DNA from: Alphaproteobacteria bacterium UBA2966
Lineage (GTDB): Bacteria > Pseudomonadota > Alphaproteobacteria > UBA2966
Direction: 5' to 3'
NCBI GenBank assembly: GCA_002348365.1
Contig: DEBC01000130.1
Coordinates: 15,224-79,223, forward strand
Length of the DNA stretch: 64,000 nucleotides
Shown here: in pieces, positions 8,103 to 59,843 of the stretch
How the letters are laid out: each line of letters opens with the position of its first letter
How positions within the stretch are numbered: position 1 is the first letter of the stretch
Program-made: the position numbers and the translations under genes
The notes under the pieces: model-generated
What the model saw: only the letters and a program-made list of their open reading frames with translations
What the model was told of the DNA's origin: nothing
The model's database searches: none

Positions 8103-9005
8103 GCGGCGCAACCTGCCGTCAATGACGGCCAGCCCGACACTGATAAGCGCCATGCCTGTGAAGTGGCGGACATCCAATTGCTCGCCGAGAATCAATGTTC
8201 CGAGCAGGATGGCACTGACAGGTACGAGGAACGTGACCAGCAGAAGATTCGTCGCCCCGGCGGTGGCGAGGATACGGAAATAGATAACGTAGGCGAGTAC
8301 CGTGGAGAACAGTGCCAGGGCAATAACGGCGCCAATTGTCCAACCATCGGGCAGAGCGAGGGCCCAGGGTTGATCGACGACCAGCGTCAAGGGAATGAAT
8401 ATCACCGTTGACGCGGTGAGTTGACCGGTCGCGGTCGTCATCGGAGAGAGTTCCATCCGGACGAACCGACGTCCATAGATTCCCGCGAACGCATACGAGA
8501 CTCCCGCTCCAAGGACAGCAAGCTGTCCCGCAACGCTGCCATCGAATGTGCGCAGGACATCGGGTCCGATCATCAGGGCGACTCCGATGAAACCGACCAC
8601 CACACCCAACATCCGCGCGCTTGTCGCTTTTTCATCTGTCGTCAGGACATGAGCTACGAGAACCGTAAGCAGGGGTGTCGTCGCGTTGAGGATGGAGGCA
8701 AGGCCGCTGTCGATGTGGGTTTGACCCCAGACAATCAGGGTGAACGGCATCAGGTTGTTGAGGATTCCCATGACCAGGAATGCTCTCCACACGTGGAGAC
8801 CGTGCGGCATCCGCACACCCGCAAGGGGTAGCAGGATGTTCAGTGCCAGCGCCGCCAAACCGACCCGCAGAACGACGACGGTCAAGGGCGGCAATGATGC
8901 CACCGCGACTTCCATGAAGAAGAACGATCCACCCCAGAAATCGGACAGGGTCACGAGCAGCGTCCATTCCAGGCCGCCCATGGTCGTTTGAACTTGCGTG
9001 GCCAT
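8070..9005 (-). CDS. EamA/DMT-family transporter
   Basis: 311 aa, about 10 TM segments and duplicated EamA-like halves; its 3' end overlaps the convergent upstream gene by 33 nt. Confidence 0.75.
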   Translation of the reverse strand: MATQVQTTMGGLEWTLLVTLSDFWGGSFFFMEVAVASLPPLTVVVLRVGLAALALNILLPLAGVRMPHGLHVWRAFLVMGILNNLMPFTLIVWGQTHIDSGLASILNATTPLLTVLVAHVLTTDEKATSARMLGVVVGFIGVALMIGPDVLRTFDGSVAGQLAVLGAGVSYAFAGIYGRRFVRMELSPMTTATGQLTASTVIFIPLTLVVDQPWALALPDGWTIGAVIALALFSTVLAYVIYFRILATAGATNLLLVTFLVPVSAILLGTLILGEQLDVRHFTGMALISVGLAVIDGRLRRLCGSPARFKR

Positions 9006-9213
9006 GGCCCTTCAGACGCTAAGACAGGGGAATTTCATTCACAGAATCTAGGGGCGTTCGGAGCCCGGGACATTCCCATACTTGCGGTCACATTTCAGCG
9101 ATCTCGAAAATATGTGGATTGGTTTGCGACCGCTCCGTGTTTGATAATCACGGCATGTCCCGATCAAAGGGCCGGTCACACAAGAATTCTTCATATGGGG
9201 AGGATTAAGAAAC

Positions 9214-9972
9214 ATTTACGCACGACGTTCGATCATCAAGCGTGTCGCCGGGCTTCCGCTTGCCGCCGTGCTGGCGGATCCGCTGCTGGCGCAGGCCGCT
9301 GCCGCGACGCTTGAGACCGTATCCCTGCGCACTTCAGGCGGCCAGGATGTTTCGGCGTCCCTCGCAAGACCTTCCGCGGCCAAGGCCCCTACGATCATGC
9401 TGATACATGAATGGTGGGGATTGAACGACCAGATCAAGGCTGTAGACCGGGAATTTGCCAACGAGGGATATCTGGCGCTCGCCATCGATCTCTATGGCGG
9501 AAAAGTTGTCTCGGTTCCTGACGATGCGCGCAGCTTTATGAAACAGGTTGATCCCGAGGTTGCAACGGATACCGTCTCCTCTTGGGTCGACTGGTTGCGC
9601 ATTCACGATCGTGGCAACGGGAACGTCGCGACCATCGGTTAGTGTTTTGGGGGCGGCTGGTCCCTGAACACGTCGCTGGCGGTGCCGGTTGATGCGACAA
9701 TCGTCTACTACGGCAATGTTACCAAGACTGCGGACCAGTTGAAGTCCCTAAAGGGACCCGTCCTCGGACACTTCGCGGCCAAGGACAAGTGGATCAATCA
9801 GAAAATGATCGATGGCTTCGAGGCGGGAATGAAAGGTGCGGGCAAAACCTTCGAGACCCACTGGTACGAGGCCAATCATGCATTTGCCAATCCAACCCAG
9901 GCCCGCTACGACGAAGCGGACGCCAAGCTGGCTTGGCAACGTACGCTCGCGTTCTTGAAGAAACACGTTTAG
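9214..9972 (+). pseudogene. dienelactone hydrolase family protein with Tat-type signal, interrupted by in-frame TAG at 9640-9642
   Basis: One frame reads ...RRSIIKRVAGLPLAAVLADPLLAQAAAA... (Tat-like), then ...MLIHEWWGLNDQIKAVDREFANEGYLALAIDLYGG...NGNVATIG*CFGGGW...ANHAFANP. The TAG sits one codon before the catalytic Cys of the G-x-C-x-G-G motif, splitting the gene into ORFs 9268-9642 and 9682-9972. There is no ATG/GTG/TTG in frame upstream of the RR motif; ATT 9214 has a GGAGG 10 nt upstream. Confidence 0.7.
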
Positions 9973-44197: not shown

Positions 44198-45286
44198 GTG
44201 GCTAAGATCCCGGAAGAAAAACTGCAGATGATCATTGATCGCCATGCCGCCCTCGAAGGGGAGCTGGCGACGGCTGCCGGTAGTGGCGATGAGTTCGTGC
44301 GTCTTTCAAAGGAATACGCGGAATTGACCCCTGTCGTTGAGGGTGCTGTCGAACTCCAGAGGCTGCAGTCCGAAGTGTCGGGGCTGGAAGAGATGCTTTC
44401 GGACCCCGATACCGATGGCGAAATGAGAACGCTGGCCGAAGAGGAACTCGCTGAACATCGGGAACGCCTGCCCGCGCTTGAAGACAAGATGCAGGTGCTG
44501 CTGTTGCCGCAGGACGCAGCTGACCAGAAGAACGCCATCCTGGAAATTCGGGCGGGCACCGGTGGCGACGAGGCGGCGCTGTTCGCGGCCGATCTCTACC
44601 GCATGTACCAGCGTTACGCCGAACTGAAAGGCTGGAAGGTCGAGGCCTTGCAGGTTTCGGAAACTGACCTCAACGGTGTGAAGGAGGCGCAGGCCTTGAT
44701 ATCGGGTGCGGGCGTGTTCGCGCGCCTCAAGTTTGAGTCTGGCGTGCACCGGGTGCAGCGAGTGCCGGAAACCGAAAGCAGTGGCCGCATTCACACCTCT
44801 GCCGCTACGGTCGCCGTACTGCCCGAGGCCGAGGATATCGATGTCGAGCTCGATGAGAAGGATCTGCGCGTCGACGTCTATCGGGCCAGTGGACCTGGGG
44901 GTCAGTCGGTCAACACTACCGATTCCGCGGTTCGCATCACGCACCTGCCCACCGGAATCGTGGTGACTCAGCAGGACGAAAAATCCCAGCACAAGAACCG
45001 GGCCAAGGCGCTGAAAATATTGCGCAGCCGACTTTACGATCTCGAGCGCGAGCGCGCCCATGCAGAGCGGGCTGAGCAGCGGCGGGGACAAGTGGGATCC
45101 GGCGACCGGTCGGAGCGGGTGCGCACGTACAATTTTCCCCAGGGACGGGTGACCGATCACCGCATCAATCTGACTCTGCACAAGTTGGATCGCGTTCTGG
45201 CGGGAGAGTCGCTGGACGAAGTGATCGACGGGCTCATTGCCGAGGATCAAGCCAGTCGCCTCGCCGAGATGGAAGCAGATGCTTGA
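44198..45286 (+). CDS. prfA: peptide chain release factor 1
   Basis: PxT-type RF1 with GGQ motif ([25 protein letters not shown]); GTG start. Confidence 0.9.
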
Positions 45287-46247
45287 TGGGAACGCCGTGG
45301 TTAGGACGGGCCTTGCGCTCGGCGAACGCGATGTTCCCGGGCAGACAATGAGTATCGACAACGCCATTCAAGATGCAGCACAGATCCTGAGGGATGCCGG
45401 CATCGAAACTGCGCGCCTCGATGCGCGATGTCTCCTGGGTCAAGTTTTGAGCATGCCGCCGATATCGCTTGCGGGCCGTCGAGACGAAGTCCTTTCCACA
45501 GAGGCATTGCGCCGATTTGGGAAGCTTGTGGCGCAGCGTTCTGCACGGACGCCGGTCTCACGAATACTCGGAGAACGAGAGTTCTGGAGTATGCCCTTTA
45601 CTATCTCAGGCTCGGTACTGGATCCACGTGCAGACAGCGAGTGTCTGATCGAGGCGCTCCTCTCCCGTATCAACGATCGTGCAGCCGCGTTGCGCATACT
45701 GGATCTCGGCACGGGTAGCGGTTGTTTGCTGGCGGCTCTCTTGTATGAACTGCCTATGAGTACGGGCCTAGGGGTCGACATCGTGCCTGATGCACTGATA
45801 GTTGCTCGAAGCAATCTCATCCGGAATGGACTGGCGCACCGGGCTCAATTTCTCTGTGGAGACTGGGCTCAGGCCCTGTGTGACGAAACCTTCGACGTCG
45901 TTCTCGTGAATCCACCATACATTCGGGCCAGCGATGCCGGAACGCTCGCACCCGAGGTGATCGACCACGACCCGCACGTTGCCCTGTTTGGAGGTTCTGA
46001 CGGCCTCGCCGCCTATCGGAAAATTCTGCCCGATCTGTCTCGTCTGATGCGGCTGGGAGGGATCGTGGCAGTGGAGATTGGATTGGGCCAGCAGTTGGCT
46101 GTATCAACCATGTTGAAGGCTGCGGGATTCCCGGACGTGGAGTGCAGGCGTGACCTTGCGGGCGTTGAACGTTGCCTGTCGGCACGACTCGAGGCTCAAG
46201 AATGTCAAGACAAAAAAGGGCTTGGAATGGCGGCATGGGGCCGCTAG
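45279..46247 (+). CDS. prmC: release-factor glutamine N5-methyltransferase PrmC (HemK)
   Basis: NPPY motif ([12 protein letters not shown]) and SAM motif [10 protein letters not shown]; overlaps the prfA stop. Confidence 0.85.
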
Positions 46248-51672: not shown

Positions 51673-53070
51673 TCAGGGTGCCGAATCGAAAGATTCGGTG
51701 GTGTAGCGCCACACGCGCAGGTCATCGGCCCAGTAGTCGGGTGTGAAACCTGCCTTGGTTTTTAGATGTTGGAGAAAGATCGGTGCCTCCGGGTAGTGTT
51801 TCCAGACTTGCGGCAGGAACGTAGCCCGCTTCTTTCCATCCTCCAATATCAGTCCGTCGATACCGGGTCGAAGCTTGGCTATCAGATCGTCTTCCGAATT
51901 GAATTTGATGGAGACCGGTATGCTCAGCACGGAAATGCTGAGGTCGACATTGTCGTATTCCTCTGAGGTCAACGGCTGGAATCGGGGATCCTTGAAGGCT
52001 GCCCGAAAAGCGTTCTGAGCGACATCGACTGCCAAAGGTTGATGCGGAACCAGAGATCCGATGCAACCCCGCAGGCGCCCCTCGCATTCCAATGTAACGA
52101 AGCTGGCACGCGGTGCGGACAACCGGGGCGGCAACAGGGTGGTCGACAAGCTGGGTTCCTTGCCCGTGGACAGGCCCGAGCGAATGGCACGGTGTGCGAT
52201 GTCGCCGAGGCGACGCCGGAACCTCTCGGACAGGCGTTGGCGATCCCCCTCTTCGACAATGAATGAACCATAACCGACCACCTTGTCACGGGGCCCTGCG
52301 GTATCGCCCGAATTCCGAAGATCCACCAGCGTGATGCGAAGGTCGCGACGCTGGGCCAGCGCCATGAGACCGCGTATCGGTCGGCCGCCGCAGGCTCCTT
52401 CCGTGGTGACCTTATCCATCTGCAGCATCTGGATCGCCCGACAGGTTGCCTCGTCCATTGAACTTGCCTTGGCGTAGTCGTGGTAGTGGCTGAGATCGGA
52501 ACTGATCACCACCAGCGTTTCCGGGCCGCCCCAAAGCGCGTCCAGTACTCGTGCGACATCCTCGGGAGCCGCGTCACCCACCACGATGGGGACCAGGTTG
52601 AAGTCGCCCAGAATCGTTTGCAGGAAGGGCAGGTGAACTTCCAGGCTGTGTTCCTGCGCGTGTGCCTCATCCATCAGACGGACCTGGGAAAATCCGGCGA
52701 TCTCTGCAATCGCTCGGGCGTCGATGGGAATCGGGCCGAGCGGCGTGACATAGGCCTCGGCGCTCGGCACGGCGAGACCGCTGAAGCCGACCCGGTGAGA
52801 GGGTCCCAGCAGGATCCCCCGATTGACCGTCCCGCGAGCTACCTCCAGGCGCGTGTATACCGAAGCGGCTACCGGACCCGAATAGACGTAACCGGCATGC
52901 GGGGCGATGACCGCCTTGGGCCAGGGCGTATCCGGATCTTCAAGATGGGTTTGGCGTGCTCCGTTCAGATAGGCATCCACCGCAGCCCGCAGTTCGCCCG
53001 GATCTTCTGGATAGAAAAACCCCGCGACGGCCGGCGCTCTGATGTGTTCGAAAGATTCCTGAGTGGCCAT
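51673..53070 (-). CDS. AmmeMemoRadiSam system fusion protein: N-terminal AmrB (MEMO1-like) plus C-terminal AmrA (AMMECR1 domain)
   Basis: N-terminal half is Memo-like (AGFFYPEDPGELRAAVDAYL...VIAPHAGYVYSGPVAASVY...GPSHRV...SSDLSHYH). C-terminal half is AMMECR1-like (ASFVTLECEGRLRGCIGSLVPHQPLAVDVAQNAFRAAFKDPRFQPL). 465 aa from ATG 53070. Confidence 0.8.
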   Translation of the reverse strand: MATQESFEHIRAPAVAGFFYPEDPGELRAAVDAYLNGARQTHLEDPDTPWPKAVIAPHAGYVYSGPVAASVYTRLEVARGTVNRGILLGPSHRVGFSGLAVPSAEAYVTPLGPIPIDARAIAEIAGFSQVRLMDEAHAQEHSLEVHLPFLQTILGDFNLVPIVVGDAAPEDVARVLDALWGGPETLVVISSDLSHYHDYAKASSMDEATCRAIQMLQMDKVTTEGACGGRPIRGLMALAQRRDLRITLVDLRNSGDTAGPRDKVVGYGSFIVEEGDRQRLSERFRRRLGDIAHRAIRSGLSTGKEPSLSTTLLPPRLSAPRASFVTLECEGRLRGCIGSLVPHQPLAVDVAQNAFRAAFKDPRFQPLTSEEYDNVDLSISVLSIPVSIKFNSEDDLIAKLRPGIDGLILEDGKKRATFLPQVWKHYPEAPIFLQHLKTKAGFTPDYWADDLRVWRYTTESFDSAP

Positions 53071-53184
53071 GGTCCCGACCCTCGCCTGCAATCACCGGAC
53101 TTCGGTGCTGTTCCCTCGTATGGGTGGGGCTATGTCACTCTAATGACTGCCCGCAAGCCTGCCAAGTATGCCTCCGAAATTTGA

Positions 53185-54282
53185 CTAAACAGTGGCAACG
53201 GGCGTCACGGGTGAGCCCACGGCGCCCGAGATTCTGAGCGGCGGCGCGGTCAGCAGGAAGCGGCTGCGGCCATTTGACCGCAACCAATCGGCAAGTTCAC
53301 TGAGGTGCCATAGCTCGGCGAGAGGGACCCCCAACCTGAACAGGCAATGTTCGTGCAACGGGAGCCAGGGACGTCGCGCCCCGGGCCCGGAGTCGTCCGG
53401 ATTGGGCAGTAGTGGATCGCACTCCACGGCGAAGTTGTCGGCAATCAGCGCAACGAGTTCGCTGTCCGTGATCCACTGCAGCAGCCGCGCATCCCAGCCG
53501 TTCAATTCAGCATAGGGATTGGGCCGAACGCGTGCGGGATCGGGCGTGCCGCCCATTTCCATCAACATGCGGCCGAAACCCGAGTGCAGCAATACCATGT
53601 CCCCCGACTCAACGACCACGTTGTCGGCTTCCATGATCATCATCAGGTCGTCATAGCCGACCTTTCGGCCCGTCGTGCTGAAATGTGCTTCCAGGTCGAT
53701 CATGACACCGCGACCCTGCACGCAGGCCACCGCAAAATTATCGATACTGAGAGCTTTTGCCTGGGCTCCTTCGTACCGGTCGTAACCGTCAATACCGGTG
53801 TCGGACGTGGGGTCTTGGAAGTGCTAATCCCCGCGATAACCGTTGTAGTAGACGATCTCGGGAACGCCGTCGCCGTCGGCATCGAACATCGAACCGACAA
53901 GCGCCAGGGAATCCCACTGAGAAGAGTATTGAGAGTAGAGAAGGACGATGTCGTCGTTCACGACATCGGTAATCTCCGAGCCTTGGGAGACCGACTCGTG
54001 GTTAAAGCAGGGTCGCCCGTCCCGATCGGGTGTAAAGATGCGCGGCGGATTTCGACGCGGATTGACCGCGTTTCCGCCCGGATAATTGAGAGGAAGACTG
54101 AGGCAGAAATTTAGTCCCTCCCGTACTTCTGCCACGCCCTCGCGGACCTTTTCCGGTGTCAGCAGGTTCAGGCGTCCGATCTGGTCATCGGGGCCGAATT
54201 CGCCCCAAGTGGAACCCTCGGGCCGATTCTTCCAGCGTTGTGCCATGACACCCTCCCTTATCTGCGACAATCTCAACGTCAC
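53185..54282 (-). pseudogene. cyclase-family (PF04199-like, arylformamidase-related) gene interrupted by in-frame TAG at 53824-53826; first gene of the amrAB operon
   Basis: ORFs 53824-54282 (...RLNLLTPEKVREGV...YSQYSSQWDSLALVG...YRGD*) and 53185-53730 are in the same frame (both end coordinates are 0 mod 3) and the sequence is continuous: ...YRGD*HFQDPTSDTGIDGYDRYEGAQAKALSIDNFAVACVQGRGVMIDLEAHF... Confidence 0.7.
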
Positions 54283-54335
54283 CTGTCAGGCGGGCCCTTC
54301 AAAAGCTGCCGCCCCGGTTTCATATATCGTCTAGA

Positions 54336-55511
54336 ATGATGCCAGCGGATGGACCAATGAGCACTGCAGCGACACCGGAAGACGTGATATCGGGCGTCGA
54401 GGGGCGTTACTGGCATGCCCTCGAAGACGGACGGGTTCAGTGTGATGTTTGCCCCAGGTTCTGCAAGCTGAAGGACGGTCAGCGGGGTCTCTGCTTTGTG
54501 CGAGCCAACGACGGCGGCCGCATCGTACTCACGACTTACGGCCGCTCCAGTGGATTCTGCGTCGATCCCATCGAAAAGAAGCCGCTCAATCAATTCCTTC
54601 CCGGTACGCCGGTTTTTTCATTTGGAACGGCGGGCTGCAATTTAACCTGCAAGTTCTGCCAGAATTGGGATATCAGCAAGTCGCGGGAGATCGATACCCT
54701 GGCCGATGCGGCGGCGCCAGAGACATTGGCGGAAGCGGCGCTGCGACTTGGCTGCCGTTCGGTTGCCTACACCTACAACGATCCAACGATATTTCTCGAG
54801 TATGCGGTGGATGTCGCCAAGGCTTGCCATGACGTGGGTGTGAAGTCGGTCGCGGTGACGGCCGGATACATCGCCCCCGAGGCGCGGGAGGAGTTCTACG
54901 CGCACATGGACGCCGCCAACCTCGATCTCAAGGCGTTCACCGAGGACTTCTATCACAAGCTCTGCACGGGAGAGCTTGCCCGGGTTCTCGATACGCTGGT
55001 CTACCTGCGCAACGAAACGGACGTCTGGTTCGAGGTCACGACGCTGCTCATCCCCGGTCAGAACGACTCGTCCGAAGAGATCTACAACATGACGCGTTGG
55101 TTCCTAGACAACCTCGGCTCGAACGTGCCGCTGCACTTCAGTGCGTTTCACCCCGACTATCGAATGCGCGATATTCCCCGCACGCCCCACGGCACACTGA
55201 TCCGGGCCCGGGATATCGCGCTGCGGAACGGCCTCCACTACGTCTATGTCGGCAACGTCCACGACGAGGCCTGCAGCTCGACCTATTGCCCGGGCTGCGG
55301 GGAGAAAGTGATCGGCCGGGACTGGTATCAGTTGACCCACTGGCATCTCGACCCTACCGGCCATTGCCGCTCTTGCGGAATCACCGTATCGGGTGTCTAT
55401 GACGGTCCGCCCGGCGATTGGGGCCGCAAGCGCAAGCCGATTCGACTGATCGATTTTGACAAGCGCCGTCGCTCCGGCTCCATGATCGGTCACAACCGCC
55501 GGCCGGCGTAG
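54336..55511 (+). CDS. AmmeMemoRadiSam system radical SAM enzyme (AmrS)
   Basis: CNLTCKFCQNW (CX3CX2C), preceded by CDVCPRFCKL; Cys-rich C-terminus (CSSTYCPGCGEK...GHCRSCG); divergent from the cyclase-amrAB operon. Confidence 0.85.
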   Translation: MMPADGPMSTAATPEDVISGVEGRYWHALEDGRVQCDVCPRFCKLKDGQRGLCFVRANDGGRIVLTTYGRSSGFCVDPIEKKPLNQFLPGTPVFSFGTAGCNLTCKFCQNWDISKSREIDTLADAAAPETLAEAALRLGCRSVAYTYNDPTIFLEYAVDVAKACHDVGVKSVAVTAGYIAPEAREEFYAHMDAANLDLKAFTEDFYHKLCTGELARVLDTLVYLRNETDVWFEVTTLLIPGQNDSSEEIYNMTRWFLDNLGSNVPLHFSAFHPDYRMRDIPRTPHGTLIRARDIALRNGLHYVYVGNVHDEACSSTYCPGCGEKVIGRDWYQLTHWHLDPTGHCRSCGITVSGVYDGPPGDWGRKRKPIRLIDFDKRRRSGSMIGHNRRPA

Positions 55512-59570: not shown

Positions 59571-59843
59571 ATGCGTCACCCGTTATTCGGATATGCGATC
59601 GCGGTTGCAATCGGCGCCGCTGTGGGTACGGGCGCTGCCGTACTGGGGCCGAACCCAGTCAAAACCTGTGTGGTCAACCCGGTTGCTGCGTCTGAGGCCG
59701 ATCCGGTGGCTCACTGGCAGGACGAGTTGGAACTCGCTCTGCCCGATGACCTGCCGGCAACACAGAAGCATGCCACGCTTGCCGGCTCGGGTGCTGACGA
59801 TTTTCTGGGCCTGGAATTGGCAGGCGACTCCAAGGGTCACTAA
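59571..59843 (+). CDS. hypothetical small membrane protein P2, paralog of P1
   Basis: 90 aa, MRHPLFGYAIAVAIGAAVGTGAAVLGPNPVKTCVVNPVAASEADPVAHWQDELELALPDDLPATQKHATLAGSGADDFLGLELAGDSKGH. AGGAGG Shine-Dalgarno upstream; shares the glycine-zipper segment and the HWQDELELALP motif with P1. Confidence 0.5.
   Translation: MRHPLFGYAIAVAIGAAVGTGAAVLGPNPVKTCVVNPVAASEADPVAHWQDELELALPDDLPATQKHATLAGSGADDFLGLELAGDSKGH

Follow-up and report, generated by a model that had tools for sequence, protein, structure and literature searches.

An amber codon fixed in a marine alphaproteobacterial population and the probable recent loss of a cyclase-like hydrolase gene

A cyclase-like gene in the window (the whole stretch of DNA analysed, 64,000 nucleotides) is very probably a unitary pseudogene, recently inactivated by a nonsense mutation in an uncultured marine alphaproteobacterial species. 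The disabling lesion, an in-frame TAG, is not a sequencing artefact and lies in an organism in which this stop codon has its standard meaning, and the syntenic orthologues at two related loci (L001 and L003) are intact.

RESULTS

One reading frame with an internal stop

Translation of the minus strand between 53185 and 54246 gives a single frame of 353 codons with one internal stop, around which the read-through translation is ...YYNGYRGD*HFQDPTSDTGIDGYDRYEGAQ... (Table 1). In the preliminary description the two ORFs had been taken for one cyclase-family gene cut by an in-frame amber codon. This reading holds, since the full-length homologues are single ORFs and the same TAG is found in 15 other contigs. 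The frame proposed there was also correct, but not the upstream end at 54282, which is an upstream in-frame GTG coming from a mechanical ORF list; the start at ATG 54246 is backed by homologues. The sequence landmarks given for the two halves (RLNLLTPE, QWDSLALVG and the GAVGSP tail) are all present in the read-through translation.

When the read-through protein (with X at the stop) was compared with homologues of about 350 amino acids, 100% of its length was matched (best E = 2.6e-211, 85% identity). Of the 8,000 candidates scored, 7,995 reached E <= 0.001. Those listed, the best 120, are almost all about 350 amino acids long and cover 98–100% of the query, and every one of them carries PF04199. 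Such end-to-end matching indicates that the ORF pair represents a single gene in two halves, whose juxtaposition is not due to chance. Independent conservation of the halves as separate genes in relatives, which had been put forward as evidence that would speak against a single gene, was not seen: all of the 119 full-length homologues aligned are single ORFs, including the orthologues with 85% and 67% identity found in the same synteny. The window copy does not encode one uninterrupted polypeptide of about 350 amino acids, its frame being closed by TAG at codon 141.

An alignment of orthologues had been suggested as a way to identify the native residue at the stop. Codon 141 specifies Thr in the three closest orthologues (ACG, ACC and ACG), so that TAG is two substitutions away from the orthologous codon, and the corresponding column is variable across the 119 homologues (E85, K11, T8, V6, D2, R2).

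Table 1. Coordinates of the features discussed in the text (positions in the window)
Feature	Position	Strand	Basis
Cyclase-like (PF04199, MGS0169/5IBZ-type) hydrolase pseudogene (very probable), 353 codons plus natural TAG stop	53185..54246	minus	Translation, Pfam, homologues, 5IBZ profile match
Premature in-frame TAG, codon 141	53826..53824	minus	Translation and orthologue alignment
H116L, codon 116 CTT (Leu), replacing the motif His	53899..53901	minus	Homologue alignment, 5IBZ alignment
C5/G5 homopolymer run; 1-bp deletion in contig L101, giving a frameshift in the C-terminal half	53328..53332	minus	Contig comparison
Promoter-like, sigma-70-like element TTGGCA-N17-TAGAGT in the 114-nt cyclase-amrBA spacer	53165..53137	minus	Sequence scan, orthologous loci
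Intact fused AmmeMemoRadiSam B-A gene amrBA (Memo + AMMECR1), 465 aa	51673..53070	minus	Domain matches, gene calls
Intact AmmeMemoRadiSam radical SAM gene amrS, divergent from the cyclase-like gene	54357..55511	plus	TIGR04337 (E = 1.2e-192), gene calls

Presence of the TAG in marine populations

The TAG at codon 141 is real and fixed in the sampled population, since the same TAG occurs in 15 other contigs and no intact allele above 85% identity was returned by a protein search of 5.8 billion (5.8e9) clustered proteins. The 15 contigs are near-identical to the window (99.4–99.97%, with 2 to 40 mismatches each), belong to two haplogroups and come from marine assemblies made independently, out of different samples and runs. 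All 15 read TAG; the sense codon that, according to the preliminary description, would overturn its interpretation was thus seen in none of these independently assembled sequences. One of them, MDTE01126555.1, was found by an exact-pattern scan in which codon 141 was written as NNN, and it reads TAG in a sequence that is 99.64% identical over 7.5 kb (27 mismatches). Besides this contig, the sources include ERR599097, ERR599111, SAMEA2619840, SAMEA2619907, SRR5321840, JGI 3300020460, JGI 3300020478, CENY01, DFPZ01 and others. The protein collection holds the exact 140-amino acid fragment together with three allelic variants, and all four are exactly 140 amino acids long.

No match was obtained when the contigs of GTDB-representative genomes were scanned for the exact pattern around the TAG, and a protein-based scan of the same collection returned only homologues with at most 62% identity. 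It follows that, for the cyclase-like gene, the species and its close relatives are absent among GTDB representatives.

Meaning of TAG in the organism

TAG is an ordinary stop codon in this organism. The 53 long ORFs of the window end in TAG (24), TGA (25) or TAA (4). Among the genes ending in TAG is clpB, whose 862-amino acid product has the same length in the sister species; TAG is also the natural stop of the cyclase-like gene in 4 out of 4 orthologues. A release factor 1 (RF1) gene is present at 44198..45286, with PCRF and RF-1 domains; it adjoins prmC, and NCBI gives its 90% cluster the name 'peptide chain release factor 1', for an alphaproteobacterial MAG. The only tRNA in the window is a tRNA-Val: neither tRNA-Pyl nor a suppressor tRNA was found within it, and Rfam searches of the whole window (gathering threshold) and of 52900..54450 (E-value threshold) returned nothing but this tRNA-Val.

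The features of amber recoding were not found, given that TAG makes up about 45% of the stops, that only tRNA-Val is encoded in the window and that the residues replaced are inconsistent. In-frame TAGs replace Thr/Glu in the cyclase-like gene, Gln in its orthologue at locus L002 and Trp in a dienelactone hydrolase (DLH) gene; replacement of such different residues fits random nonsense mutation, not recoding.

Two observations can be added here. A TAG share of 24/53 is unusually high for a bacterium with 59% GC. In the L002 orthologue (78% identity) the in-frame TAG is at codon 22 (L002:7944-7946), where the other orthologues have a conserved Gln (CAG), and gene prediction resumes at codon 40. 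Coverage of the contig is only 5x, and this TAG could be a genuine second loss of the gene in the clade or a mistake of assembly.

Enzyme family and loss of the motif histidine

The Pfam family PF04199 ('Putative cyclase') was matched by residues 165-275 of the read-through protein with 33.1 bits (cut-off, 23.1). Among solved structures, the family profile matches PDB 5IBZ only (E = 7.5e-43), in two stretches that cover most of both proteins. The corresponding enzyme, MGS0169, is a Mn-stimulated, metal-dependent carboxylesterase of the cyclase-like family PF04199 with a modified motif (Gln127-x3-Gln131-x-Asp133-x3-His137), the active-site residues Arg87, His286 and Glu299, and only 17–22% identity to classical PF04199 enzymes (Popovic et al. 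2017, PMC5341072). Its His137 lies 2.6 A from the bound ligand, the H137A mutant is insoluble and enzymes of the family form tightly packed oligomers (PMC5341072).

Residues were mapped to MGS0169 by manual position counting on the profile alignment with 5IBZ, combined with the published numbering. The equivalents of Arg87, His286 and Glu299 in the window copy are R65, H298 and E311, and their columns are invariant in the homologue alignment. Like MGS0169, the window copy has Gln in place of the first two motif His. The Gln-x3-Gln-x-Asp-x3-His motif is incomplete, however: Q106, Q110 and D112 are kept and Leu stands at position 116, the equivalent of His137, which is His in 118 of the 119 homologues and in 5IBZ. 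This H116L replacement is a two-base change (CAC to CTT) and is invariant among the population contigs. H116L and the TAG at codon 141 thus distinguish the window copy from MGS0169, from which its clade is distant. Because residues on either side of codon 141 contribute to the active site, neither fragment alone would be expected to form it.

KynB (kynurenine formamidase) and isatin hydrolase belong to the same Pfam family and fold class as the window gene. Their classical motif, His-x3-His-x-Asp-x3-His, binds Zn or Mn, whereas the window subfamily has Gln-x3-Gln-x-Asp-x3-His. Some homologues are automatically annotated as 'kynurenine formamidase'; in view of the different motif and of the 17–22% identity, this annotation is an unreliable guide to function.

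Signs of decay and tests of selection

Derived alleles were found at columns that are invariant in 119 out of 119 homologues: G190S is fixed, G136D is carried by 4 contigs, P335S by 6 contigs and P56R by one fragment variant. These changes, together with the single frameshift listed in Table 1, point towards relaxed selection. Beyond the TAG, the frame runs on for 212 codons without another stop.

The quantitative comparisons, for their part, gave no statistically significant sign of relaxed selection. Compared with L001, the cyclase-like gene has dN = 0.093 and omega = 0.058 (dS is about 1.6, i.e. saturated), similar to its neighbours (omega of 0.035 for amrS and 0.039 for amrBA). No acceleration was apparent in a relative-rate comparison, the lineage-specific amino acid changes numbering 15 for the window and 14 for L001. 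Nor does the window copy deviate more often than the intact sister protein P0001 where at least 95% of homologues agree, each having 9 deviations. Within the population, the ratio of non-synonymous to synonymous differences (N/S) is 8/4 for the cyclase-like gene and 16/13 for the neighbouring genes (Fisher p = 0.73); intact neighbouring genes also have N >= S, and the divergence is too shallow for this comparison to be informative. Likewise, the cyclase-like gene was not separated from its neighbours when conservation between L001 and L003 was used to classify the polymorphisms. The absence of acceleration relative to the intact sister orthologue indicates that the inactivation is recent. The lesion thus predates the divergence of the two haplogroups, which is about 0.5%, and is young when set against the separation from the sister species.

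The neighbouring amr genes

The pseudogene sits between amrS and the fused amrB-amrA gene of the AmmeMemoRadiSam system (TIGR04335, TIGR04336, TIGR04337), and on its own strand it is followed downstream by amrBA and an M23 peptidase gene. The rest of the operon had been described as intact. This is true in so far as amrBA and amrS are intact (amrBA in all contigs), but amrS lies on the opposite strand. The arrangement, in which amrS diverges from the series cyclase, amrBA and M23, is common to the three closest lineages. Its cyclase orthologue has 85% identity at L001 (intact, 354 amino acids), 78% at L002 and 67% at L003-L005 (intact).

Among 80 loci of more distant homologues (55–62% identity; alpha- and betaproteobacteria), none had amrS, amrBA or another of the neighbours less than 6 kb away, as judged by tblastn run without a positive control; linkage of the cyclase gene to the amr genes is therefore specific to the clade represented by the window, L001, L002 and L003-L005. 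The cyclase gene is absent from the defined components of the AmmeMemoRadiSam system, and its distribution among the loci compared speaks against its being a general component of it. In the literature on this system only incidental mentions were found, and no functional study.

The promoter-like element in the spacer between the cyclase-like gene and amrBA is kept in L001 and L002, and in L003 its -10 half only, despite saturated synonymous sites. Since it is conserved across loci that have diverged to this extent, amrBA probably has its own promoter. No terminator-like site was seen between the cyclase stop and amrBA, nor any convincing rut-like, C-rich and G-poor stretch downstream of the TAG (the highest C/G ratio is about 1.4). 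The further suggestion of the preliminary description, that termination at the amber codon could lower amrAB expression by polarity, is not supported.

The element belongs to a longer conserved block of non-coding spacer that takes in the next 40 nt and in which TTGGCA-N17-TAGAGT is followed by CCCNCCCATA; the block is common to L001 and L002, and partly to L003. It has no Rfam match and is likely to be the amrBA promoter or leader. At L002 (~8946-9010) the cyclase stop is directly followed by an inserted inverted repeat, perfect over about 23 bp (AGCCCGGATTTCTCACAGGGATG ... CATCCCTGTGAGAAATCCGGGCT), which is absent from the window, L001 and L003. It is not accompanied by a T-run and could be a small mobile hairpin element.

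DISCUSSION

Proposed course of the inactivation

The ancestral gene would have been intact, encoding a cyclase-like hydrolase or esterase of about 353 amino acids, probably metal-dependent and of the MGS0169 type. A premature TAG would then have been acquired at codon 141 in the species of the window. Ribosomes are expected to terminate there with RF1 and to release a fragment of 140 amino acids in which the N-terminal motif is kept and those active-site residues that lie further on (matching His286 and Glu299) are missing, so that no active enzyme would be formed; the motif histidine is lost as well (H116L). The lesion is fixed in the sampled population, with the rest of the frame only starting to decay. 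From these features we infer that there is no functional product and no read-through at codon 141.

So understood, the gene is an ordinary young nonsense pseudogene, a fresh instance of a well-known kind with little import beyond annotation. Ordinary unitary pseudogenes of the nonsense type likewise have a single premature stop in a full-length syntenic orthologue with the sister species intact, and nothing essential sets the present case apart; its one distinctive trait is the fixation of the allele in many ocean samples in combination with an almost undamaged frame.

Alternative explanations

That the stop would be an error of sequencing or assembly, the genome having a sense codon, has practically no probability left. 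Single-base errors occur in metagenome-assembled genomes, but here the same TAG is shared by 15 other contigs obtained from different samples with different assemblers and differing elsewhere, and it is two bases away from the orthologous Thr codon; sequencing error was rejected as effectively refuted by these independently assembled contigs. Pyrrolysine recoding or reassignment of TAG can be given no more credit. It would account for the fact that the three in-frame stops noticed in the clade (window gene, L002 orthologue and the DLH gene at 9640) are all TAG, but TAG ends about 45% of the ORFs, at ends supported by homologues, RF1 is present, tRNA-Pyl is lacking in the window, the residues replaced differ from one case to the next (Thr/Glu, Gln and Trp, respectively), and at the DLH site both TAG and TGG occur within the species. 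Moreover, with GC-rich codon usage and transitions from CAG and TGG, TAG would be the nonsense codon to expect.

Some residual function is easier to imagine, and still unlikely. If the amber codon were leaky, by near-cognate read-through or through an unlinked suppressor tRNA, a little full-length protein could be made: the frame after the TAG is open and well conserved, there is no acceleration of rate, codon 141 falls in a variable column so that a read-through product would lack only His116, and the stop is followed by C, which in E. coli makes for rather weak termination. Yet His116 of the motif is lost regardless, residues invariant in the family are changed in the population and one contig is frameshifted; furthermore, general suppression would be costly with RF1 present and TAG among the two commonest stops (24/53), and no suppressor tRNA is encoded in the window. 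Less probable still is a split gene, in which the 140-amino acid N-terminal part and a separately initiated C-terminal product of ~172-181 amino acids would come together as an active enzyme. In every contig both pieces are called as genes, and the enzyme family forms tightly packed oligomers, but the 119 full-length homologues aligned are without exception single ORFs and the halves are separate in no relative; besides, the possible restart codons (173, 176 and 182) are not preceded by a Shine-Dalgarno sequence, gene callers disagree about the restart (172 or 178 amino acids), and a product begun at any such restart would lack some 32-41 conserved residues that follow the TAG. Finally, there is a slim chance that the amber is tolerated because the gene still matters, either as a source of trace read-through enzyme acting with the AmmeMemoRadiSam proteins or through its untranslated 3' part, which would tune amrBA by polarity. 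The independent TAGs in the window and in L002 would then reflect selection for down-regulation, not loss.

Consequences of the pseudogene reading

With recent inactivation retained as the best explanation, annotation should give the two ORFs as a single pseudogene, not as two hypothetical proteins, and an account of what this widespread marine alphaproteobacterium can metabolise should leave the cyclase-like gene out. The case would be a clean example of a nonsense allele that is fixed across many ocean samples in a frame otherwise almost intact and, together with the polymorphic DLH TAG, it would illustrate an ongoing loss of accessory hydrolase genes in the lineage. It does not speak for stop-codon recoding, nor does it help in approaching the function of AmmeMemoRadiSam.

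Other observations in the window

The DLH gene (PF01738; 9214..9972, plus strand) is a second gene of the window broken by an in-frame TAG, at 9640..9642, and reads ...ATIG*CFGGGW..., with the stop at a site occupied by Trp or Phe, before the nucleophile Cys, in every full-length homologue aligned. This TAG is polymorphic, contig L103 (99.59% identical) having TGG and contig L102 (100% identical) TAG. Relatives start the gene with ATG (MYARRS); in the window and in L103 an ATT is found at 9214, 8 nt after GGAGGA, and the start codon has either been lost or is a rare ATT start.

A small ORF at 59571..59843 (plus strand, 90 amino acids, no Pfam match) carries E54* (G>T, position 59730) in MDTE01126555.1, along with two further non-synonymous differences; it is either not a real gene or another decaying one. 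The prmC gene (45279..46247, plus strand) has 54% identity between the window and L001, compared with 77–90% for the neighbouring genes, and its SNPs in the population are four non-synonymous and zero synonymous. In the sister lineages, the stretch that separates the MR_MLE gene from glcD contains transposase genes of the DDE_Tnp_1 and IS110 types (L001:2633-3994 and L002:422-1379). The matching spot in the window (58.5-61 kb) contains small ORFs and a GNAT gene, and it appears as a variable stretch in an otherwise syntenic region.
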